Assembly: GCA_963753985.1 (NCBI GenBank)
Contig: CAVWED010000008.1
Span: 82,545-146,544 of the forward strand
Origin: an uncultured Chloroflexia bacterium
GTDB lineage: Bacteria; Chloroflexota; Anaerolineae; Anaerolineales; Villigracilaceae
Length of the DNA: 64,000 nt
Reading direction: 5' to 3'
The position numbers and the translations under genes were made by a program. Of the stretch, positions 1,218 through 46,140 are shown one piece after another. A model generated the notes under the pieces. The model was not told where the DNA came from and did not search any database. It worked only from the letters and a program-made list of their open reading frames with translations. Every line of letters starts with the position of its first letter. Position 1 is the stretch's first letter.

Positions 1218-1258
1218 GCGTTACTGCTATCCGTGCAAATTATTGTCGGAATGTTATG

Positions 1259-2032
1259 TTATTTTCCAACAAACACGATTGGACATGCTACAGTTAAGGC
1301 AAAATCGCTTTTACTTACTTGAATATAGAATTGTCCCGTTGAATTATCGTTAGTAATTATTGAGCTAAAGCCGCCGTCCACATCTCTTAACCTTGCCCAA
1401 TAACAAGAGTTTGTTCCGGCTTGGCCTTTATATGTGCCAGGCTGTATATCTATTCCTACTAAATACATTCCAGTGTCAATGTTTGTGGGCATATGTGCCG
1501 AAGGGGTAGGAAGCGAGGTAAGAAGCAATAGTTCACAATCAGTTTGAAGGGCATAATCAGTAGGTTTGACACGGATATAGTATTGACCATTGCTGTTATC
1601 GTTTGCCAATATTGAGTCAACGGTTCCTGATGTGTCTTTTAGTCTAGCCCAATAACAAGAATTGGTTCCAGCTTGGCCTTCATAAAGTCCTGACTTTATA
1701 TCCTTTCCAATAAGATAAGTTCCTGGTTCAACAAGATTTGGATTTGCCGTCGGTGGAATAGGTGTATTAGTTGGGGCATAAGTTGGCGACTCTACGGGAG
1801 TGGTCGCAGGGTGAGATAAAAGGGCGGTCTGCGTGACATTAGCCCACGCAGTAAGAACCGCAGAAGTTTGAATTGCATTGACATCAGCAGTTGGCTTGGG
1901 TGTTAGGGCGCTGATTGCATTTGAAATCATACCAACGACAATACAGACGACACATAGCCCAACAACGACTCCGCCAATGGTTAGCCAGTTGTTGTGTTTA
2001 ACGGGTGGAAGCGTTGATTGTTGTGTGCTCAT
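1259..2032 (-). CDS. membrane-anchored protein with two tandem ~65-aa repeats, unknown function
   Basis: N-terminal TM helix (WLTIGGVVVGLCVVCIVVGMI), PT-rich linker, then a duplicated module G-x-Y-x-G-x-DI-x-x-G-x-Y-x-GQAGTNSCYWARL-x-D...NDNS-x-GQ-x-YI. Confidence 0.6.
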   Translation of the reverse strand: MSTQQSTLPPVKHNNWLTIGGVVVGLCVVCIVVGMISNAISALTPKPTADVNAIQTSAVLTAWANVTQTALLSHPATTPVESPTYAPTNTPIPPTANPNLVEPGTYLIGKDIKSGLYEGQAGTNSCYWARLKDTSGTVDSILANDNSNGQYYIRVKPTDYALQTDCELLLLTSLPTPSAHMPTNIDTGMYLVGIDIQPGTYKGQAGTNSCYWARLRDVDGGFSSIITNDNSTGQFYIQVSKSDFALTVACPIVFVGK

Positions 2033-2211
2033 TGGAAGTCCCTTTTACCTTATGTAACTGCATATAATCCACTCAGTACGCCTTACTGTTTTAATATACT
2101 CCCTTCCTCCCTTTTTGTCATGTGTCCGTTATCATAAAAAAACAGGGTAAGCCCGTGCTTTGTTTGTGGGCGGATCCGTTAACTGCGCCGTTATCCTTGT
2201 GCGTGTACGCT

Positions 2212-2385
2212 TTAGTTCAACTTCTGCAATTCCTTTTCAAGTTCAGCGCGGGCAATATGCAACATGGACGCCAGGGCGTCCAGGCTTCGAGTCCTGTATT
2301 CAGCGGGAAGGATTGTAACATGCGTGTAATTCAATAACTTTTTCTTTTGCTTTTCCAGTTGTTCAATTCGTTGTTTGTTCGTCAT
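2212..2385 (-). CDS. 57-aa small protein, third member of the MTxKQRIxxLE family (below ORF-track cutoff)
   Basis: Own translation: MTNKQRIEQLEKQKKKLLNYTHVTILPAEYRTRSLDALASMLHIARAELEKELQKLN*. Its ATG overlaps the upstream stop as ATGA (2382-2385). Confidence 0.45.
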   Translation of the reverse strand: MTNKQRIEQLEKQKKKLLNYTHVTILPAEYRTRSLDALASMLHIARAELEKELQKLN

Positions 2386-2588
2386 TCTGAATCCTTTGGT
2401 AACTCGTCAATAAATCGGATACATATTTCCTTGTCGTTATCCGTTTTTATTTTGTCCCATTCGGCCAGGGACATTTCAACGCCGTCACAGGTTCCGAAGT
2501 CGTTCCCTTCAAAGTACACAAATAAGCGCGGCACACCGTGCGGCTTCTGTTCTTGCTCAAGTTTCGTTATTCGTTGTTTGGTTGTCAT
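2382..2588 (-). CDS. small protein, MTTKQRITKLE family
   Basis: Internal start MTTKQRITKLEQEQKPHGVPRLFVYFEGNDFG... preferred by analogy with its two paralogous neighbours. Confidence 0.5.
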   Translation of the reverse strand: MTTKQRITKLEQEQKPHGVPRLFVYFEGNDFGTCDGVEMSLAEWDKIKTDNDKEICIRFIDELPKDSE

Positions 2589-2598
2589 GTCGCATGTC

Positions 2599-2817
2599 CT
2601 ATATTTTATCCAGGTCAATACCGACTCGAATCGTTTTGACAGACAAACTCGCGCCTATATATTCGTCAACCTGTGCGCGTGTCATACCAATTAATTCAGG
2701 ACTGCCATATTCAACCAGTCCCGTTTTTTCGTTACATATCGTTACCCAAATTTTGCCGTTAGCGTGCTTCGCACCGTGCGCTTTTTCAAGTTGGCTAATT
2801 CGTTGTTTCGTTGTCAT
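2599..2817 (-). CDS. small protein, MTTKQRISQLE family
   Basis: MTTKQRISQLEKAHGAKHANGKIWVTICNE... The start overlaps the upstream stop as ATGA (2814-2817). Confidence 0.5.
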   Translation of the reverse strand: MTTKQRISQLEKAHGAKHANGKIWVTICNEKTGLVEYGSPELIGMTRAQVDEYIGASLSVKTIRVGIDLDKI

Positions 2818-3020
2818 CTTGAATCCTTTCCCGTGTCCGCCTTCACTTCAACAGACAGCGGTATCATCTCGCGCTTGCATTCAAGCAATGCCGCGACTTG
2901 TCGAATTGAATTTTCGTCCAGGTCAAACGTGACGCGAATCCCGCCGTCAACAAGAGTCTTAACCTGTGCCACGGTCGCAGGGAATTTAATAACGTTCACG
3001 GTTCTATTTTTTGTTGCCAT
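2814..3020 (-). CDS. small hypothetical protein
   Basis: 68-aa ORF in the same tightly packed minus-strand gene string. Overlaps the upstream gene by 17 nt. Confidence 0.4.
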   Translation of the reverse strand: MATKNRTVNVIKFPATVAQVKTLVDGGIRVTFDLDENSIRQVAALLECKREMIPLSVEVKADTGKDSR

Positions 3021-3426
3021 TGATAGCCGCCTCCAATGCGGTCAAACGTTCGTCAATGTTCAGCGTGTCAATAAACTTAAGCGACAGGTTCAACCAGTCA
3101 ACTGCCGCTTGTCTTCGTGTGCTTTCATGTTTCGCTTTGGTTATCAGTGTTTCGAGCGCGTCCAGGGCGAGAGACTGCCCCACTGAGAGTCGGCGTGTCA
3201 CCGTTTCAAGCATAGCACTTTCAGCAGATCGCAGAGCCGCACGGAATACCGGTTCAGTTAACCAGTTATAAAGCGTCCGTTCCCCTATCCCCGCCCGCTT
3301 CGCCGCCGCGCTTAGTGTCCTTTCGGACAACAGCGCCGCGATCGCTTTTTGTTGTTTGGTAGATATGCCATTATCGGAATTTTCCGGCATGTCTTCAGTT
3401 ACATATTCTTTTTGTTTTTCAGTCAT
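3004..3426 (-). CDS. helix-turn-helix DNA-binding protein (phage/plasmid type)
   Basis: ...LSERTLSAAAKRAGIGERTLYNWLTEPVFRAAL... is an HTH motif followed by a helical C-terminus. Confidence 0.55.
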   Translation of the reverse strand: MTEKQKEYVTEDMPENSDNGISTKQQKAIAALLSERTLSAAAKRAGIGERTLYNWLTEPVFRAALRSAESAMLETVTRRLSVGQSLALDALETLITKAKHESTRRQAAVDWLNLSLKFIDTLNIDERLTALEAAINGNKK

Positions 3427-3435
3427 TGGTTCACC

Positions 3436-4443
3436 TCAATTTTCTAAACATTCAACGCCCAGGATCGCCGTCAAGAAGTCAGCCAGCGCGCCGACTTGTA
3501 GAAGTTGATTCGCATCATGCTTGACGTTATTCTCTCTAACGCTTTGTATCTGTTTACCCCTGCCCTTTACGAGTCCGCTTAAGTCTTTGGCACGTTGTCC
3601 GCCTTTACTCCAAACATCATCCGCCCAAACAAAGACATGTTGATAACGGAGTGCGATTGCTTGCAGTATATCAACGCGTCCGCCGCTTTCACTTCCGAAT
3701 GATAAAGCGGTCACGCTGCAAGGATGACACTGCCAAATTGAAAGCGTATTGAATTCACCTTCAACAAGTAAGAGCGTGTCATGGGATTTGTTTGCATCTT
3801 GCAAGCCAAACAGCAAAGGCACACTGCCGGACATTGCCGAATAACGCAAGCCGTCCGGTTCATCATCCATAAACCGATACTTGACGGCTATTATCGTTTC
3901 GCCGGTCGTGTCCATGTCAAGCCACGGAATGACAAGCGCCGGACGTTGACGTTTTATCTTCGGATCGAACATCACCACATAACCCAACAGCCACGCGTAC
4001 CATGTCCCACGAGATAAGCCGCGCCGTGTGAGATATTCGTGGCCGGCTTTCCCGTCATCCGAGTCCAGTCTATCAGCCGCCGCGGTGATATGCTTCAATG
4101 CTTTTTCTTGCCATGCTGAATCCGGTAAAGTGATGGGCTTCGGCTTCGGTCGTGGTTGTGCTTTGGGCGTGATGGGTTTTGAAACATCACCGCCCAGGGT
4201 AGACAATGCGGTTTTGAAGTCGCAGTTATCCCGCTTCATCACGAAGTCAATCACGGTATGATATTTGCCGTCCCCACATTGCCGACAGTGCCAGCGGTCA
4301 CCGGTCGGCGTGTGTTTGACGGTTAGGCGGTCAGTCCCGCCGCAAAAGGGACACGCGCCGACATGATAAGCGCCCGCCGGTTTGAGTTCATATCCCAGCA
4401 AGGGGATGATTTCAACAGTCTGTTTGATATTCTGAATATCCAT
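3436..4443 (-). CDS. DNA primase (primase-helicase-type zinc ribbon + Toprim domain)
   Basis: ACPFCGGTDRLTV...WHCRQCG zinc ribbon. Toprim-like LLLVEGEFNTLSIWQ with later acidic motifs (VWADDV). Confidence 0.8.
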   Translation of the reverse strand: MDIQNIKQTVEIIPLLGYELKPAGAYHVGACPFCGGTDRLTVKHTPTGDRWHCRQCGDGKYHTVIDFVMKRDNCDFKTALSTLGGDVSKPITPKAQPRPKPKPITLPDSAWQEKALKHITAAADRLDSDDGKAGHEYLTRRGLSRGTWYAWLLGYVVMFDPKIKRQRPALVIPWLDMDTTGETIIAVKYRFMDDEPDGLRYSAMSGSVPLLFGLQDANKSHDTLLLVEGEFNTLSIWQCHPCSVTALSFGSESGGRVDILQAIALRYQHVFVWADDVWSKGGQRAKDLSGLVKGRGKQIQSVRENNVKHDANQLLQVGALADFLTAILGVECLEN

Positions 4444-4542
4444 GTTTCAAAGTCCTTTTGTTACGGTTACTTGTCCCAAATGTCCACGCTATGACATCGT
4501 AACAAGTGACGCCGGAAGACTGATTACAACAAAGGAAAAAGT

Positions 4543-4670
4543 ATCGGGACGCTTTTCTCTCACCATCCTACCGTCCCACCATCCCGATACCCCTTAAGGG
4601 GGTATATATCGGGACGGTTTTGGGCATCCCGATTTTCAAAACGGGAAGGTTCGGGAAGGTTGGGAAGGTT
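4543..4670. repeat. iteron/palindrome cluster, putative replication origin of the integrative element
   Basis: ATCGGGA(C/T) four times in alternating orientation (4543, 4581, 4608, 4626). Imperfect palindrome CCCGATACCCCTTAAGGGGGTATATATCGGG (4583-4613). GGGAAGGTT three times in tandem (4643-4670). Confidence 0.5.
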
Positions 4671-5730
4671 ACAAATTACGGCTTTCATTCTTGCCTTTTT
4701 CGGTCAATTGGTATGCGCCTTTTTGACCGTTCCCGTTTGGATTTTCGACAATTCCGGCTGTGATAAGGTTTGAAACATTATTTCGGATTGCCTTATCTTT
4801 CCCTATCGCAGGATCGCACCCGTCAATAATAGCGTTCATATCGCTAACGCCACTGTCCCGCAAAAAGCGAAGGATATAAATCTGCAAGTTGCTGTAATGC
4901 CGCTTCGCGCTTTGTTCGGATGAAGTCAGCCAAAAACTTTTTGGTTCAATCGTCATTCGATTCGCCATTGCCGCGAATTTGACGGGCGCTTCGTCTCTAA
5001 CTTTTGTTGTCTCAAAGTTAATCAGATCGTCTTCGGGTTCGCTTTCAACTTTGATGAGAGTATCTATCGCGCCTTTGATTGCAGTACTGCCGCGGTAATT
5101 ATCCTTGCCGGTTCCTTTGTTTGAATGATGAATGATGACTATCGCCGCTTGTGTATCTTCGGCAATACGCCGCAAGGTCAAGAAAACGGGCTGAACATCT
5201 TTCACCGCGTTTTCATCCTTGCCAGGCATCACATCCGCCAGGGCGTCAATGATGACAAGGCCCGCGCCCAAGCTATTGATAAGGTTTGTCAGTTCACCGA
5301 TCCAAAACGCATCCCCCAAATTGAAGCCAGCCACGGACACACACGAGACGGGCGTATTATCATCGGCGTCATGCCCGCGTAACACTTCGGCAATACGGCG
5401 CTTGATTCTTGCTTTGCCGCTTTCCTCGTCAATAATCAATGCGGGCTTCTGCATTGTTTGAAAGTCAAGCCATTGATTACCAGTCGCAACGCATACTGCC
5501 AAGTCAAGCAATGCCCACGTCTTTTTTGTTCCGCCATCACCATAAAAGATATTCACGCTTCCGGCTGAAATAAGTCTATCTACAACCCATTCGATAGCGG
5601 GTTGAGGTTGTAACGCATCGTAAGCCGTGATGATTTCATAACGCGGCTTTCCTTCCGGTATGACTATGGCTTTGTCGGCAAGTTCTTTACCGTTGATTTG
5701 CTTCAATAAGTTATCGGTCGCTATCGTCAT
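4669..5730 (-). CDS. RecA-fold AAA_25/RepA-like ATPase (putative replicative helicase/loader) with C-terminal winged-helix
   Basis: Walker A GDGGTKKT, Walker B LVIIDALAD, IVIIHHSNKG...YRGSTAIKGAIDT, typical of plasmid/phage RepA-DnaB-like ATPases. Confidence 0.75.
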   Translation of the reverse strand: MTIATDNLLKQINGKELADKAIVIPEGKPRYEIITAYDALQPQPAIEWVVDRLISAGSVNIFYGDGGTKKTWALLDLAVCVATGNQWLDFQTMQKPALIIDEESGKARIKRRIAEVLRGHDADDNTPVSCVSVAGFNLGDAFWIGELTNLINSLGAGLVIIDALADVMPGKDENAVKDVQPVFLTLRRIAEDTQAAIVIIHHSNKGTGKDNYRGSTAIKGAIDTLIKVESEPEDDLINFETTKVRDEAPVKFAAMANRMTIEPKSFWLTSSEQSAKRHYSNLQIYILRFLRDSGVSDMNAIIDGCDPAIGKDKAIRNNVSNLITAGIVENPNGNGQKGAYQLTEKGKNESRNL

Positions 5731-8309: not shown

Positions 8310-8393
8310 GGGGCGGTGGCGGAATCGGCAGACGCAGTTGACTTAAAATCAACCGGTGGAAACACCTTGAGGGTTCAAGTCCCTCTCGCCCCA
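8310..8393 (+). tRNA. tRNA-Leu (anticodon TAA), class II with long variable arm
   Basis: Hand-folded. Acceptor GGGGCGG/TCGCCCC, anticodon arm GTTGA-CTTAAAA-TCAAC, variable arm CGGTGGAAACACCTTG, T arm GAGGG-TTCAAGT-CCCTC, discriminator A. Confidence 0.9.
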
Positions 8394-11022: not shown

Positions 11023-11487
11023 ATGCCTGAACCCACCTACCTAACCCCCGAAGGCGAGGCCAAACTTAAAGCAGAACTGGAAGAGCTTAAAGGGCCCCGC
11101 CGCCAAGAATTATCCGTTCGACTGCGCTCGGCAATTCAAATGGGCGATCTATCCGAGAACGCGGACTATCACCAAGCCAAAGAAGATCAGGGTTTCCTCG
11201 AAGGCCGCATTCAGGAACTTGAACACGTTTTGCGGAATGCGGTGATCATTCAGAAAAGCACTTCAAAGGGTGTCGTGACTGTCGGCTCGCAAGTGACAAT
11301 TCAAGAAGGAAGCTTCCCAGCAGAAACTTATTATGTTGTCGGAGCCAAGGAGGCCGATCCGCGCAACGGAAAGATATCAAACAAATCGCCGATTGGCCGC
11401 GCTCTAATGGATCACAAAGTCGGCGAGGTGGTCGAAGCGGAAACTCCGGCAGGAAAGATCAAACTCAAGATTTTGAAAATCGAATAA
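11023..11487 (+). CDS. greA: transcription elongation factor GreA
   Basis: LTPEGEAKLKAELEELKG..RR.EL..RL..A...GDLSENADYHQAKEDQGFLEGRIQELE plus a C-terminal FKBP-like domain. Confidence 0.9.
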   Translation: MPEPTYLTPEGEAKLKAELEELKGPRRQELSVRLRSAIQMGDLSENADYHQAKEDQGFLEGRIQELEHVLRNAVIIQKSTSKGVVTVGSQVTIQEGSFPAETYYVVGAKEADPRNGKISNKSPIGRALMDHKVGEVVEAETPAGKIKLKILKIE

Positions 11488-11569
11488 ATATAGCGTGATC
11501 GAGTAGGGAGCGGCGGCTAGCCACTCCCTCTCACACCACCGTACATGCGGGGCCGCATACGGCGGTTCA

Positions 11570-12160
11570 TCAAGCAGAACGCAGTTCGTGATACCGTTCT
11601 TTGATGCTCTTCAGCCCTGAGTTATGCCAATAGGTATTGCTCAGGGCTTGATTTATCACAGGTGCGGCAGACATTCGCCAAGGACTTGTGCCTTTGGCTC
11701 CTTCTTGTGCCCATTGTTTTGGGACGCCCAGCTTCACTAATTCTCGATAGCGGGTTGTACTTCGTTTCCAGCGTTTCCAAATCAGTTGCCTCAATCGTCG
11801 TCGTATCCAACTGTCCAGCTCCTCAAATAGGCTCGGTGTGTCAGCCAGCCGGTAATATCCGATCCAACCGATGATATAACGGTTGATCTCTTCCAGGATC
11901 TGTTCCAGTGTGCCGCTCCGAGTGCGCTTGGTCAGGTTGCGTAGCTTTTCTATAAAGCGTTCCTTCGTTCGGTTCGCAATTCGGATTAGCACCATCCCTT
12001 TGCGCCTGAAGAAACTGAACCCAAGTATTTTCACCTTCCCCACTTTCTCAACCTTACTTTTCTTGGGATTGACTTTCAACTTCAGCTTCTTTTCCAGAAA
12101 CCCTTTCACGCTTTCCATTACTCGTTCACCCGCTCGCTGCGTTTTGACATAAATGTTGCG
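11570..12160 (-). CDS. group II intron A reverse transcriptase/maturase, C-terminal part (downstream of nested intron)
   Basis: (C)NIYVKTQRAGERVMESVKGFLEKKLKLKVN...YIIGWIGYYRLADT is the post-YADD finger/thumb (maturase X) region. Confidence 0.75.
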   Translation of the reverse strand, partial: RNIYVKTQRAGERVMESVKGFLEKKLKLKVNPKKSKVEKVGKVKILGFSFFRRKGMVLIRIANRTKERFIEKLRNLTKRTRSGTLEQILEEINRYIIGWIGYYRLADTPSLFEELDSWIRRRLRQLIWKRWKRSTTRYRELVKLGVPKQWAQEGAKGTSPWRMSAAPVINQALSNTYWHNSGLKSIKERYHELRSA

Positions 12161-14026
12161 GTGAGTGGCCCGAGGGAGTTTCACCCTCGGGCTCTCTCAG
12201 AACCGGACGTGAACCTCTCAGCTCATCCGGCTCCCGTTATCCAGCCGCAGGCAGTATGCCCATCTGCCAATGAACAAACAATTCGGGTAAATTCTTGGCC
12301 AGTCTCCCTATCCAATGAATTGCTCTGATTTTGTGCCGTGCTAACTTCTTGTATTTCCGCCGTGCCCAGAGAATCAGCGCATCGTTGATATGGCGTAACA
12401 CTGGATAGAGTTGCGATTTGTAGAAGCGGCCGTAATAATTGACCCAGCCTCTGATGATTGTATTAAACATCCTCGAAAGTTCATCGATCTCTTTGTCTGA
12501 TTTCAGTTGCAGGCGCCAACTTCGGATGGTTTGTCTCATGGCTTTGCACGCTTGATTGCTTACCGCTGGTGTAAAATTGATGAAATACTTTCCCCAGCGA
12601 TTCTTTGACCTCCTGGGCCGAAAGGTATAGCCCAGAAAGTCAAATGCCGTTACCGGGTAGTCCCCTTTTCGATCATCATCCTTGCAGTACACAATCCAGG
12701 TTTTCTCCGGGTGCATTTCTAATCCACACTGCTTCAACCGTTCTTCCAGCTTGATCCGTAAGGCTTCAGCTTCCGCTTTCGTTCGACAATGGATCACTGC
12801 ATCATCCGCATACCTTGCCCACGGATTGCGTACATTCTCTCTGCTCATCCATTGGTCAAACGCATAATGCATGAATAGATTCGCCAAGATCGGACTGATT
12901 ACCCCGCCTTGGGGTGTCCCAGCCGTTCGTTCAATCCTGGTTCCATCCTGCATCTGAAACGGCGCTTTCAGCCACCTTTCAATATAGAGTATCTCCCATG
13001 GACTGTTTGTATGTTTCCGCACCGCTTTCATTAACAGTTCATGGTCGATCCGGTCAAACAGTTTCTTGATATCAAATACCAGCACCCAGTCATAACGCCA
13101 GCATCTCTCACGCGTTTTTCCCACCGCTTCAATAGCTGACTTCCCTGGTCTGTATCCATAGGAGTCTGCCTGAAAGTAGGGTTCCACCTTCGGCTCAAAG
13201 TGCAGCTTGACCGTCATTTGCGCTACACGATCGGCTACGGTCGGTATCCCCAGGATTCTCGTCCCTCCGCTTTTCTTGGGTATTTCCACTGCCTTAACCG
13301 GCGGGGGAAAGTAACTCCCGGAAGACATCCGATTCCAAATCTTATACAGGTTGCCTTTGAGATCCTCTTCAAACTTTTCGATCGTTTCTTCATCAACCCC
13401 GGCTGCCCCTTTATTCGCTTTGACTCGCTTGTATGCCTCCCAGACCGTTTGCTTGGGAATATCATACGGCTTCGTTTTGTCCATGGCTCCTCCTACTTTT
13501 CAGTAGTTGACACATCTTCAAAACCAGATCACTCAACCTCTTCGCTCCTCCACCTTTTTCGTGGTTTCCTCGCTACTATAGGTTGATCCGCCCCTATACT
13601 CCGCATTTGTACTTTCATCCTGACGGGGTTTCCGCTTGGATTTTTCCATTCGCATCGGAGTCGTAGGTTCCCACGTTCCGTACTAAAGCCTGTGTGATGT
13701 TCACGCCGCCTTCATGCCGGTCACCGTCTGGTCAGTAATCAGGTTCCTTCCAGACTTATCCCAAGTCAACAACTCTACCTGGTTTTGATGGCTTCCCTAC
13801 GCTTTCGACACTTTATCAGCGATTCACTTGTGTTCGTCTCCATCACACTTACCTGACAGAGTCTTCGCTCTGCCTTTTCCGTAACGCTCACGACCGTGGC
13901 TTTTGTCCACTGCCGCTTACGGCGGTTTGAAGCCTCCACCTGCATGGCGGCTCCGAGGGGCCCGCCCTCATCTCTCGTACAGTTCGGCTCTGCCTCCTCC
14001 TTTCTCTATGAGTCTTCGTGGCGCAC
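12161..14026 (-). mobile_element. group II intron B nested inside the RT gene of intron A
   Basis: Starts GTGCGCCACGAAG at 14026 immediately after the YADD codons. Domain V GAGCCGGATGAGCTGAGAGGTTCACGTCCGGTTC (12200-12233). Domain VI-like stem, ends ...GGGCCACTCAC(C) at 12161/12160. Confidence 0.75.
12237..13484 (-). CDS. group II intron B reverse transcriptase/maturase (intact, no endonuclease domain)
   Basis: 415 aa. GAAGVDEETIEKF...RILGIPTVADRVAQ...YGYRPGKSA...PQGGVISPILANLFM...YADDAVIHC...RGWVNYYGRFY. Confidence 0.9.
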   Translation of the reverse strand: MDKTKPYDIPKQTVWEAYKRVKANKGAAGVDEETIEKFEEDLKGNLYKIWNRMSSGSYFPPPVKAVEIPKKSGGTRILGIPTVADRVAQMTVKLHFEPKVEPYFQADSYGYRPGKSAIEAVGKTRERCWRYDWVLVFDIKKLFDRIDHELLMKAVRKHTNSPWEILYIERWLKAPFQMQDGTRIERTAGTPQGGVISPILANLFMHYAFDQWMSRENVRNPWARYADDAVIHCRTKAEAEALRIKLEERLKQCGLEMHPEKTWIVYCKDDDRKGDYPVTAFDFLGYTFRPRRSKNRWGKYFINFTPAVSNQACKAMRQTIRSWRLQLKSDKEIDELSRMFNTIIRGWVNYYGRFYKSQLYPVLRHINDALILWARRKYKKLARHKIRAIHWIGRLAKNLPELFVHWQMGILPAAG

Positions 14027-14723
14027 AGTCATCGGCATAGCGCACAAACTTGTGCCCGCGCTTTTCCAGTTCTTTATCTAGATCGTCCAGCATGATATTG
14101 GAAAGTAACGGCGAGAGTGGGCCACCTTGCGGCACGCCTTCTTCTGCATCCATTACTACTCCATTTATCATCACTCCCGATTCCAGATAGGCTCGGATCA
14201 GCTTGAGCACTCGTTTGTCTTTCACCACCCGTGCCACGCGGGCCATCAGCATATCGTGGTTCACTCGATCAAAGTATTTCTCCAGATCGATATCCACACA
14301 CCATTCGTATCCTTCTTGCACATACGTTTGGGCTTGCCTCACAGCTCCATGCGCACTGCGGCCGGGTCGGAACCCGTAACTGTGTTCCGAAAAGAGCGGT
14401 TCGAATAACGAAACCAACACCTGCGATATCGCTTGTTGGAGAAAGCGATCTAGTACATTCGGTATCCCTAACTGCCTGACCCCGCCATCGGGTTTGGCAA
14501 TCTCAACCCGTCTGACTGGGTTCGGCCGATAGACCCCGCTTTCGAGAGCTGCCCTGGTCTCCAACCAATGTTCCTTCAGGTATGGACGAAGTTCTTTCGC
14601 CATCATCCCATCGATGCCTGGCGCCCCGCCGTTGCTCTCTACTCGCTTCATCGCTATGAGCAAGTTCTGTCTTTCCCAAATCTTTTCCCATAGCCCTGCG
14701 TCGGATGTTCGCTCGTCTCGCAT
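14027..14723 (-). CDS. group II intron A reverse transcriptase, N-terminal part (ends at YADD)
   Basis: MRDERTSDAGLWEKIWERQNLLIAMKRVESNGGAPGIDGM...RQLGIPNVLDRFLQQA...YGFRPGRSAH...PQGGPLSPLLSNIML...FVRYADD, then runs into intron B. Confidence 0.8.
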
Positions 14724-15278
14724 TGTGGACGGCTCGGCCCTCGGTTCCAATCCCGTCGGCTTCACCGACTTCGCTGGCTCCGCAGTATCCCTATCCGGGA
14801 GAGGCTGCCTTCTGTGTTCATCCTGCGAAGTGACTGCTCCTTTCAGTCGCAAGCTGCTCAAGTTACTACTCCGCTTTGATGTTCGGCCCTTCCCACCCGA
14901 TGGCGGTGGTACTTCGGCCTCGGCTGATTGGTATCCTGTGTTCTCTCAGGACCCCTGCCAATTCAGCCTGATTTCTCAATCAGGGTTCCCAGTTTTCCGG
15001 TCTAATGGCAGGTCTCCCCAGATAAGAACGTTGACTTTCTCTGCATCCCTGTCCCATTTACTGCTTCGGCCTTTGACTGCATCGGGCTTCGTTGTCGTTT
15101 GCCAACTCGCCCGGCCTCACAGCCTCTTATAGGTTTCTTGTTCATCAGGTCGCAGATTTGCCTCCGGCTTCCTCCAGACCCCACCTCACAGTGACGCCCT
15201 TGCCTTCAGCTAACAGTTGGCGCAATCAGCCTCTGTCAGAGTCTTTCACTCCTTAGTCAACACCCATGCTGGGCGTAC

Positions 15279-15316
15279 AAACAAAAGTCCGTCATTGCGA
15301 TGACGGACTTTTTTCT
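15279..15316 (-). terminator. intrinsic terminator of the 15318-16325 gene
   Basis: Minus strand AAAAGTCCGTCAT-cgca-ATGACGGACTTTT followed by GTTT. Intron A begins at the next base. Confidence 0.8.
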
Positions 15317-15317
15317 T

Positions 15318-16325
15318 TTAAGCGGGTTGAGGGCTCTTTTGCCAGATCGCCAATTCGAGCGTAATCCGCTCAAAGAAACTATTGGTAGGCAAGGCTCCGT
15401 TTCCATATTGCAAATCAACCACCTTCACCAGCAGTTGCAGAGTCGCAGTCTCGAGCATGACCTGCTTTTGCGGGTCAACAAGCACAAGCTCGCCTTTTGG
15501 CTCGAGCCGTGCGCGGATCGTCCCATCAGAAAATGCATGGGCGCTCATCAAAACTTTGGTCGCAGTCTTGATATCGTTCTTATCAAAGAGCCAAATCTCC
15601 AGGGCGGTGACTTTCTTCGGGTCGCCAACACCGATCACTTCCGAAACACCAACGCCGTACTCGCCCAAAAAGTCGCCGCTTTGTGTGTCAATGCTGAAGG
15701 ACTCATCATATAAGTCATCGCCCAAAACATACGTCGTCATGTTTTGAGTAACAGGCTGTGCAACTCCCATCGATTGAAAATCCGTCTTGCTCTTTTCAGC
15801 TTCACGGTTGATCTCGGTCATCTGCATGGTCGGCGTAACCTCACCGCTGGAGCGCTTGCTCAGCAGACGCCGCAAAAAGATAATTGCCGCAGCTGCCGCA
15901 ACTAGCAGAAGTACTGCCAAAGCTCCCAGCAAAACCTTCGAGCCCAGCGACAAGCCGCTGGAGGATGTCGGTGCGTTGCCGGAATTGGACGCTAAGACCG
16001 TTTGAATGACTTGTCCATATTCTTGGATCAAAGCCGGATTCGTTTTACCTGGGTTCTTCTGGATGTCTGAAAAAGCGGGTGCGGCCGCCGGGCCGAGACT
16101 TTCCCAGCGTTGGACGGCCAGATTCGGGTCGGGATTGACGGCGAAGGAATCAATCGCCATCCGCAGATAATCTTCCTGCAAGTCGGAACGCATAACCGCT
16201 GGAGTGGTGTTCGCGACCACTACCGTGTTCCAGCCTACGAAAACACCAATGATGATCCCCAAAACGAGAGCAACCGCCCCCACAAATAACGGCTTTTTAA
16301 CAAGAAGTTCGAGCAATGAAGACAT
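15318..16325 (-). CDS. two-TM membrane protein, unknown function
   Basis: 335-aa ORF with two hydrophobic helices (FVGAVALVLGIIIGVFVGW; LLGALAVLLLVAAAAAIIFL) and a soluble C-terminal domain. Confidence 0.6.
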   Translation of the reverse strand: MSSLLELLVKKPLFVGAVALVLGIIIGVFVGWNTVVVANTTPAVMRSDLQEDYLRMAIDSFAVNPDPNLAVQRWESLGPAAAPAFSDIQKNPGKTNPALIQEYGQVIQTVLASNSGNAPTSSSGLSLGSKVLLGALAVLLLVAAAAAIIFLRRLLSKRSSGEVTPTMQMTEINREAEKSKTDFQSMGVAQPVTQNMTTYVLGDDLYDESFSIDTQSGDFLGEYGVGVSEVIGVGDPKKVTALEIWLFDKNDIKTATKVLMSAHAFSDGTIRARLEPKGELVLVDPQKQVMLETATLQLLVKVVDLQYGNGALPTNSFFERITLELAIWQKSPQPA

Positions 16326-45846: not shown

Positions 45847-45919
45847 GCCGAGATAGCTCAGTTGGTAGAGCACGCGACTGAAAATCGCGGTGTCCACAGT
45901 TCGATTCTGTGTCTCGGCA
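45847..45919 (+). tRNA. tRNA-Phe (GAA)
   Basis: Hand-folded. GCCGAGA/TCTCGGC acceptor, GCTC-AGTTGGTA-GAGC, CGCGA-CTGAAAA-TCGCG, CACAG-TTCGATT-CTGTG. Confidence 0.9.
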
Positions 45920-45945
45920 CACTCGGTCAGGAAGAAAGACCGAAT

Positions 45946-46017
45946 GCGGGCGTAGTACAGCGGTAGTACGTCTCCTTGCCAAGGAGAAGGTCGTGGGTTC
46001 GAATCCCATCGCCCGCT
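45946..46017 (+). tRNA. tRNA-Gly (GCC)
   Basis: GCGGGCG/CGCCCGC acceptor, anticodon arm TCTCC-TTGCCAA-GGAGA, T loop TTCGAAT. Confidence 0.9.
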
Positions 46018-46021
46018 CTGG

Positions 46022-46053
46022 ATGAGGATTGCCAACCAGCAATCCTCATTTTA
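46022..46053 (+). terminator. intrinsic terminator after tRNA-Gly
   Basis: ATGAGGATTGC-caacca-GCAATCCTCAT followed by TTTT. Confidence 0.75.
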
Positions 46054-46069
46054 TAATATAGACGAACAT

Positions 46070-46140
46070 GGCGTCGTGGCCAAGTGGTAAGGCAAGGGTC
46101 TGCAAAACCCTCATCAGGGGTCCGAATCCCCTCGACGCCT
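46070..46140 (+). tRNA. tRNA-Cys (GCA)
   Basis: GGCGTCG/CGACGCC acceptor, anticodon arm AGGGT-CTGCAAA-ACCCT, T arm AGGGG-TCCGAAT-CCCCT. Confidence 0.9.

Follow-up and report, generated by a model that had tools for sequence, protein, structure and literature searches.

A group II intron nested at the active-site codons of a group IIC intron's reverse transcriptase gene in a Chloroflexia contig

The stretch of contig CAVWED010000008.1 analyzed here (64,000 nucleotides from an uncultured Chloroflexia bacterium; hereafter, the window) contains two group II introns, one inside the other. The outer element, intron A, is a group IIC intron located behind a transcription terminator, and the inner element, intron B, splits the reverse transcriptase (RT) gene of A next to the codons for the catalytic Tyr-Ala-Asp-Asp (YADD) motif. 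The nesting is confirmed, with matches far beyond chance at the coordinates listed below, which refer to the window; all features of the two introns lie on its minus strand.

15278..11498 (-): outer intron A, group IIC, 3,781 nucleotides (nt) including B and 1,914 nt excluding it, from 5' GUACGCCCAGCAUGGG to ...CCCUACUCGAU 3'
14723..14027 (-): RT-A exon 1, starting with the ATG at 14723 and ending ...KFVRYADD plus the T of a Cys codon
14026..12160 (-): inner intron B, 1,867 nt, GUGCGCCACGAA to ...GGGCCACUCACC, inside the RT-A gene
13484..12237 (-): RT-B, an intact RT/maturase of 415 amino acids with the Pfam domains RVT_1 and GIIM only, TIGR04416 430.5 bits
12159..11570 (-): RT-A exon 2, in which GC finishes the Cys codon, followed by NIYVKTQRAGE..., the GIIM domain and the stop codon TGA at 11572-11570
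14027 + 12159 (-): predicted ligated RT-A exon junction, ...GATGACT/GCAACATT... (here and below, the slash marks the junction)

In the list of open reading frames (ORFs), the locus appears as three pieces, namely, an RT N-terminal half, the intact 415-codon ORF (13484..12237) and a C-terminal half extending to the stop at 11570. When read without splicing, the N-terminal half of RT-A continues beyond ...KFVRYADD for 16 out-of-frame codons inside B and then terminates. Joining 14027 to 12159 produces an uninterrupted RT-A of 428 amino acids, which reads YADDCNIYVK, contains the Pfam domains RVT_1 and GIIM and reaches 420.3 bits in TIGR04416, whose curated cutoff for group II RT/maturases is 300 bits. 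As annotated, its homologues start 38 codons upstream of the ATG at 14723. The joined RT-A is 99% identical to a protein (P0121) encoded without interruption in another assembly (L001), and most A-family RTs in the database are uninterrupted as well. At the DNA level, L001 aligns with the window up to position 14026 and restarts at 12162, with a 4-nt overlap in L001 coordinates.

YADDC is present in 118 of the 120 best RT-A homologues, with the exact YADDCNIYVK in 78 of them, and none of the 120 reads YADDR. Because the homologues read YADDC and never YADDR, intron B extends from 14026 (GUGCG...) to 12160 (...CUCACC), with T 14027 being exonic and C 12160 intronic, which puts the insertion point 1 nt past the YADD codons, within the Cys codon (GAC T/GC). 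A join of 14028 to 12160, corresponding to an intron UGUGCG...CUCAC and a protein reading YADDR, is also in frame, yet it was rejected, given the lack of a YADDR homologue and the L001 DNA, which matches GACTGCAAC.

An earlier reading of the window, made from the sequence alone, had proposed two nested group II introns, an interruption carrying its own intact 415-residue RT/maturase, and, immediately behind each ORF stop, domains V and VI. All three proposals hold, with Rfam matches to domains I-IV and V/VI in both introns and the TIGR04416 match of RT-B. The two checks that this sequence-only reading suggested, covariance models and the joining of the flanks, recovered domains V/VI where it had put them and a continuous RT, respectively. 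Its assignment of the extra C of CTCAC/C to the intron likewise stands, since only the YADDC join agrees with the homologues; B was correctly located at YADD, but the insertion is 1 nt later than "exactly after" these codons. The covariance-model matches, all at the gathering threshold, are as follows:

13969-13851 (-): domain I region of B, Rfam group-II-D1D4-2, 104.8 bits, E 1.5e-20
12235-12160 (-): domains V/VI of B, Intron_gpII (RF00029), 54.8 bits against a gathering score of 40
15195-15027 (-): domains I-IV of A, Rfam group-II-D1D4-3, 133.5 bits, E 2.5e-27
14988-14886 (-): further match in A, Rfam D1D4-1, 35.3 bits
11567-11498 (-): domains V/VI of A, Intron_gpII (RF00029), 45.1 bits, with the bulged A of domain VI at 11504

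Intron B displays the landmarks of a complete group II intron. Its 5' end, GUGCG at 14026-14022, fits the GUGYG consensus, domain V (12233-12200) is 34 nt long with an AGC triad, and domain VI has a bulged A at 12166, the seventh nucleotide from the 3' end. RT-B, for which Pfam reports no endonuclease domain, is encoded as an identical protein on 5 contigs and is 57% identical over residues 5-407 to a 419-residue intron RT of Sinorhizobium meliloti (ltrA). The layout of B seems IIB/class D-like, its putative B-like RNA structure being judged indirectly, from the presence of an exon-binding sequence 2 (EBS2) and from an intron-binding sequence 2 (IBS2) positioned as in RmInt1.

Copies of B in other hosts suggest how it came to be where it is. 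An intron with 99.7% identity to B and the same ends occupies the same position in a different group II RT (L002; ...KLIRYADD/FIIICRTK), and the host DNA resembles that of the window for only 16 nt on the upstream and 7 nt on the downstream side of the intron. Given such a near-identical B in an unrelated host RT, B appears to move on its own, choosing the same codons, and not only as a part of A. A search with RT-B, restricted to one genome per species, yielded 80 loci with 61-97% protein identity in the best segment, in Chloroflexia, Gamma- and Deltaproteobacteria, Acidobacteriota, Spirochaetota, Bacteroidota, Firmicutes and an ANME-1 archaeon. With the intron ends of these relatives placed using nhmmer, 52 distinct 5' junctions were obtained, including that of the window, and 39 of them are preceded by xADD codons plus 1 nt (34 YADD, 4 FADD and 1 CADD). 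The presence of B at YADD is no coincidence; a described intron lineage homes specifically to this site.

Among 10 reconstructed host proteins, 8 score above the TIGR04416 cutoff and are diverse group II RT/maturases, and 2 are retron-type RTs; the automatically placed 3' ends were often 3 nt early but in frame, which adds one spurious residue and leaves the family assignment unaffected. The retron-type hosts come from a Terriglobia metagenome-assembled genome (MAG; L084) and from plasmid pBTHD789-2 of Bacillus thuringiensis (L087), and in NCBIfam they match the retron families St85 and Ec67 best, with scores below cutoff. Thus, the B lineage also enters RT genes that are not intronic and possibly related to defense.

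The same survey provided several side observations on the B lineage. In the Gammaproteobacteria MAG MFD03551.bin.1.140 (L083, junction 2455), a B relative splits a GH94 gene at CGTTATGGCGATGATT, a look-alike encoding R-Y-G-D-D, which represents an ectopic insertion in a cellular gene. Head-to-tail tandems of B-type introns at one YADD site (...CUCACC/GUGCGCC...) are found at L007 (277, 2459), L008, L010, L016 and L034, with the Chloroflexia MAG MFD04780.bin.2.32 as a source, and at L008 an ORF-less derivative of 664 nt (1795-2458) directly precedes a full copy (2459-4325). Tandem re-insertion is plausible, given that an occupied site keeps its IBS1 and IBS2 and that the first G of the resident intron mimics the +1 G of A-type hosts. 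At L015, a B-type intron lies in the YADD codons of a B-type RT, making two levels (outer 1237..4965, inner 2462..4325), and three levels are present in Halioglobus OZ253569 (L043; 5' ends near 5, 1230 and 2458; 3' ends at 4325, 4965 and 5602); this B-in-B nesting is a bacterial counterpart of the nested arrays of Methanosarcina acetivorans. Finally, at L079 (junction 2453), an RT N-terminal half ending in RYADD is followed by an intron and then by the C-terminal part of a DNA methylase (Pfam N6_N4_Mtase), which may reflect a rearrangement between intron copies.

The pairing between B and its target accounts for this choice of codons. To locate the EBSs, every alignment column of B and its relatives was compared with every exon offset in an unbiased complementarity scan, resulting in the following assignments:

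14039..14027 (-): B homing site in the 5' exon, the Tyr-Ala-Asp-Asp codons plus 1 nt, in the window CGCTATGCCGATGACT/GTGCG; the B target sequence at YADD is CGCTATGCCGATGACTGC
14039-14035 (-): IBS2, UAUGC, exon positions -13 to -9
14033-14027 (-): IBS1, GAUGACU, exon positions -7 to -1, with C 14034 between IBS2 and IBS1 unpaired
13802-13798 (-): EBS2, 5'-GCGUA-3', pairing with IBS2
13774-13768 (-): EBS1, 5'-AGUUGUU-3', in the loop of a CCAGG/CUUGG stem, pairing with IBS1

The EBS1 block is the best in the whole alignment, with 5.6-5.9 of 6 positions paired, compared with at most 4.85 elsewhere. Across the 52 sites, 334 of 350 EBS1/IBS1 cells (95%) and 245 of 260 EBS2/IBS2 cells (94%) are paired. 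Another EBS2 candidate, GGCAUG near 13725, was dropped, as the alignment-wide scan favored GCGUA at 13802-13798.

Guides and targets also change together. In L077-81, EBS1 is GUAAGUU and the non-RT sites carry IBS1 GAYUUAC (L076 pairs at 6 of 7 positions), and in L076-81 EBS2 CGUUA is matched by IBS2 UAAYG. EBS2 GGAAA of L086 is compensated by IBS2 UUUCC, and L086 co-varies in EBS1 as well, as do L055a in EBS1, L019 in both EBS1 and EBS2, and L013 in EBS2. L076-L081 are several copies of a B relative in one Acidobacteriota MAG (MFD05521.bin.1.238), at non-RT sites ending ...GGTAACGCGACTTAC/; this sub-lineage has been retargeted away from YADD, with both EBS1 and EBS2 changed to match.

The register of the guide coincides with codon degeneracy. 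All 39 introns at xADD sites have a G in the guide opposite the C/U third positions of both Asp codons, and 38 of the 39 have one opposite that of Tyr. The third base of the Ala codon, which is 4-fold degenerate, coincides with the unpaired position -8. It follows from the G at C/U third positions and from the gap at the Ala third base that the guide tolerates synonymous variation.

Intron A, in turn, bears the hallmarks of a group IIC intron at a target typical of this class. Its outer ends, 15278 and 11498, for which the sequence-only reading had given the same positions, were set with the help of six further copies that lie in different flanks (L001, L089-L093), the shared sequence running from GT(A/G)CGCCCAGCATGGG to CTACTCGAT (an end also given as CCTACTCGAT). 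The intron starts 4 nt past the stem of a hairpin:

15283..15312 (-): terminator hairpin of the upstream gene (ORF 15318-16325, minus strand), with a 13-bp stem and an RNAfold energy of -21.7 kcal/mol, followed by UUUUGUUU

The target sequence is AAAAGUCCGUCAU-CGCA-AUGACGGACUUUU GUUU/, and a terminator scan finds the hairpin too. Each of the 7 A-family copies starts 0-6 nt, mostly 3-4, past a hairpin and its T-run. RT-A matches the GsI-IIC RT (PDB 6ar1) over residues 11-427 (E 7e-158, 529 bits, in contrast to 157 bits for RT-B) and the intron RT/maturase of 7uim (E 2.6e-107), which we take to be of class IIC. In the RF00029 alignment, domain V of A is 4 nt below the consensus (2 nt at the tip compared with 6) and its triad is CGC, both of which typify IIC introns. 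The terminator-adjacent position in 7 of 7 copies, the match to the GsI-IIC RT and the short domain V together argue that A is a group IIC intron.

The target hairpin has the form of a terminator in the plus-strand direction as well, and greA (11023-11487, +) ends only 10 nt from the 3' end of A; the insertion of the 3.8-kb twintron has thus parted greA from a probably shared bidirectional terminator. A promoter scan yielded nothing above shuffled expectation. Elsewhere in the window, and unrelated to the introns, are a cluster of three tRNA genes (45847-46140, +) and a separate long-arm tRNA gene (8310-8393, +).

Collectively, these results make it very likely that the twintron arose by two successive retro-insertions, in which a member of the RYADD-homing lineage entered the RT gene of A. 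Presumably, the IIC intron A arrived first, immediately behind the intrinsic terminator hairpin that lies between ORF 15318-16325 and the convergent greA. The endonuclease-less B would then have retrohomed into the RT gene of A at the DNA for the active-site R-Y-A-D-D. In this process, EBS2 (GCGUA) would pair with UAYGC, that is, the Tyr codon and the first two bases of the Ala codon, skipping the third Ala base, and EBS1 (AGUYGUU) would pair with GAYGAYN, that is, both Asp codons and one further base. With a G opposite each C/U third position, synonymous variants of the motif would still be recognized, and such synonymous-tolerant pairing with RT active-site codons would make any RT gene a potential target. 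The lack of an endonuclease domain and the work on RmInt1 (PMC4075523) suggest that B inserts by reverse splicing into the single-stranded DNA of replication forks.

B resides in the ORF loop of domain IV of A, and the ribozyme core of A is not interrupted. Without splicing, the RT-A frame ends after 16 codons of B, so that the RT/maturase of A would be made from this copy only after B has been spliced out of the transcript. The twintron-like dependency suggested by the sequence-only reading is therefore borne out at the level of the reading frame, with a spliced product of 428 amino acids, but it need not bind A as a whole, as uninterrupted copies such as L001 could provide RT-A in trans. An uninterrupted A copy, which that reading had proposed to look for elsewhere in the genome, does exist, albeit in another assembly. 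B itself is presumably still mobile.

Several points weigh against this account. The 3' end of B is ...CACC instead of the common ...AY; its relatives share such unusual ends (...CACU in B. thuringiensis, ...UGCC in Clostridium pasteurianum), and only these ends restore the host frames. EBS3/IBS3 has no consistent assignment, the first base of the 3' exon being T or G, and rarely C, across sites. RT-B may belong to class D, to class E or to the unclassified proteins, the 57% identity to the S. meliloti protein being the indication for class D. Furthermore, the splicing of B, and hence the expression of RT-A from this copy, is predicted from sequence features. The 5' end of A is GUACG rather than GUGYG, as it is in L001, whereas more distant copies have GUGCG; with this start, the activity of A itself may not be assured.

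The last of these points, together with a 24-nt insertion (GCGACTGAAAGGAGCAGTCACTTC, a small hairpin) that distinguishes this A copy from L001 at ~14843-14820 (-), upstream of the RT-A ATG, could indicate that B killed this copy of A and that the locus is a decaying relic in which neither intron splices or moves. We consider this improbable. Both ORFs are intact, the joined RT-A is free of stops and frameshifts while being nearly identical to the uninterrupted copy, all ribozyme landmarks exceed the Rfam gathering thresholds, and the occurrence of the same RT-B on 5 contigs, along with an almost unchanged B at a second, unrelated site, points to recent movement.

Still less probable is that A and B travel as one unit, with the position of B inherited from an ancestral twintron and no site-specific homing involved. 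B-type introns do occur in A-type RTs within the same ...GHKFVRYADD context at several Chloroflexia loci (L008, L009, L011, L015, L016 and L034). However, the L002 copy, whose host RT shares no DNA similarity with A beyond the immediate flanks, largely refutes this possibility, and relatives have entered this motif in many unrelated RTs and in retron-type RTs, as well as its GH94 look-alike. In addition, the junction base and the synonymous codons vary between A-type hosts, and A-family RTs are mostly without the intron. Lastly, a fusion of two separate introns during assembly or scaffolding, for which nothing specific speaks beyond the tendency of repeated mobile elements to cause misassembly, has a negligible probability, because two independent NCBI assemblies (L003 and L004) carry the same nesting at the topA/greA locus with 99.9% identity, the base-exact junctions restore the reading frame and the insertion obeys the EBS/IBS pairing. 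Two successive insertions, the second by site-specific homing, remain the preferred explanation.

For annotation, the implication is that an RVT_1 N-terminal half, a full RT and a GIIM C-terminal half in succession represent a single IIC intron RT split by a second intron, rather than three genes or pseudogenes. The locus offers a clean, apparently recent bacterial case of an intron parasitizing another intron at a sequence that no RT can afford to change, and both an empty sister copy of A and another host of this B can be compared with it. It is established that twintrons form through homing into RT active-site codons, and the locus opens no new question in this respect; what is new here is the instance, with its Chloroflexia-type host and IIC outer partner, and the side observations extend the known picture without changing its kind. 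Nevertheless, the four members cited in 2008 give little idea of how widespread and prolific the lineage is in metagenomes. The surveyed lineage spans many bacterial phyla and an ANME-1 archaeon, occurs in tandem arrays and in nests of up to three levels, and includes retron-type RTs among its targets. The covariation-backed EBS/IBS model could be used for testing or retargeting these introns. We only tentatively entertain, as a rather unlikely generalization, that the B lineage is a generalist hyperparasite of RTs with guides matched to codon degeneracy, one guide serving for essentially every synonymous version of Y-A-D-D. If such a degeneracy-matched guide and the reach into non-intron RTs prove to be undescribed, the lineage would represent a natural, programmable "anti-RT" element.

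Among the closest known relatives of B is B.th.I3, which is inserted at AGGTATGCTGATGACT, in RYADD codons, with both IBS1 and IBS2 within the motif (Tourasse and Kolstø 2008, PMC2504315). M.a.I5, UA.I3 and P.l.I2 have the same specificity and form twintrons in the RT ORFs of other introns; introns of this type measure ~1.8 kb, have a B-like structure, encode no endonuclease domain and share 58-67% identity among themselves (PMC2504315). RYADD-motif homing has also been described by Dai and Zimmerly 2003, as cited in PMC4424553, and one "B.th.I3" was placed in the unclassified group g2 by Toro and Martínez-Abarca 2013. The intron of plasmid pBTHD789-2 of B. thuringiensis HD-789, at ...AGGTATGCTGATGACT/GTGCGCCACGAA, lies at the published site of B.th.I3; its identity to B is 67.7% over B positions 45-1866 (98% of the length), and the first 12 nt are the same. 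These features indicate that B belongs to the known RYADD-homing lineage, the sequence comparison covering the B. thuringiensis member and the likeness to M.a.I5, UA.I3 and P.l.I2 resting on their description. Like the B.th.I3 lineage, B has IBS2 and IBS1 over the R-Y-A-D-D codons, inserts 1 nt after GAY GAY, is ~1.8 kb long (1,867 nt), encodes an endonuclease-less RT/maturase and forms twintrons in RT genes of other introns. The window differs in its Chloroflexia-type host and in having a terminator-targeting IIC intron as the outer partner. Furthermore, it has a single level of nesting, compared with up to five nested introns at the "perpetual homing site" in M. acetivorans (Zimmerly and Semper 2015 review, PMC4424553); a 2024 bioRxiv preprint on archaeal group II introns contains nothing on nesting.

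The other reference points are RmInt1 and the IIC introns. RmInt1 of S. meliloti, of class D/IIB3, has its IBS1 at -1 to -7. Its IBS2 has been mapped experimentally to -9 to -13 (PMC4075523), the position also found in B, and both introns encode proteins of ~415-419 amino acids without an endonuclease domain (PMC4075523, PMC8914252); the 419-residue S. meliloti RT with 57% identity to RT-B may be that of RmInt1 itself. The target of RmInt1 is the insertion sequence ISRm2011-2, whereas that of B is RT genes. Similar to the IIC introns GsI-IIC, O.i.I1 and B.h.I1, A lies a few nt after a terminator hairpin (7 of 7 copies) and lacks an endonuclease domain, and its RT aligns end-to-end with the GsI-IIC RT, the short domain V and CGC triad being further shared traits. 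Unlike those introns, A hosts a second intron in its ORF and starts with GUACG, not GUGYG.

Finally, the bacterial twintrons of Thermosynechococcus elongatus, in which inner introns are nearly identical and outer ones diverged, have been taken to result from independent insertions (Mohr, Ghanem and Lambowitz 2010, PMC2882425), and the same logic applies to the L002 copy of B. In both systems, the inner intron occupies a conserved site in the ORF region of another mobile group II intron. However, the inner intron of T. elongatus is ORF-less and lies between the first two ATGs, so that the outer intron-encoded protein can be made without splicing, whereas B encodes its own RT and splits the catalytic motif, which would make splicing obligatory for the production of RT-A from this copy.

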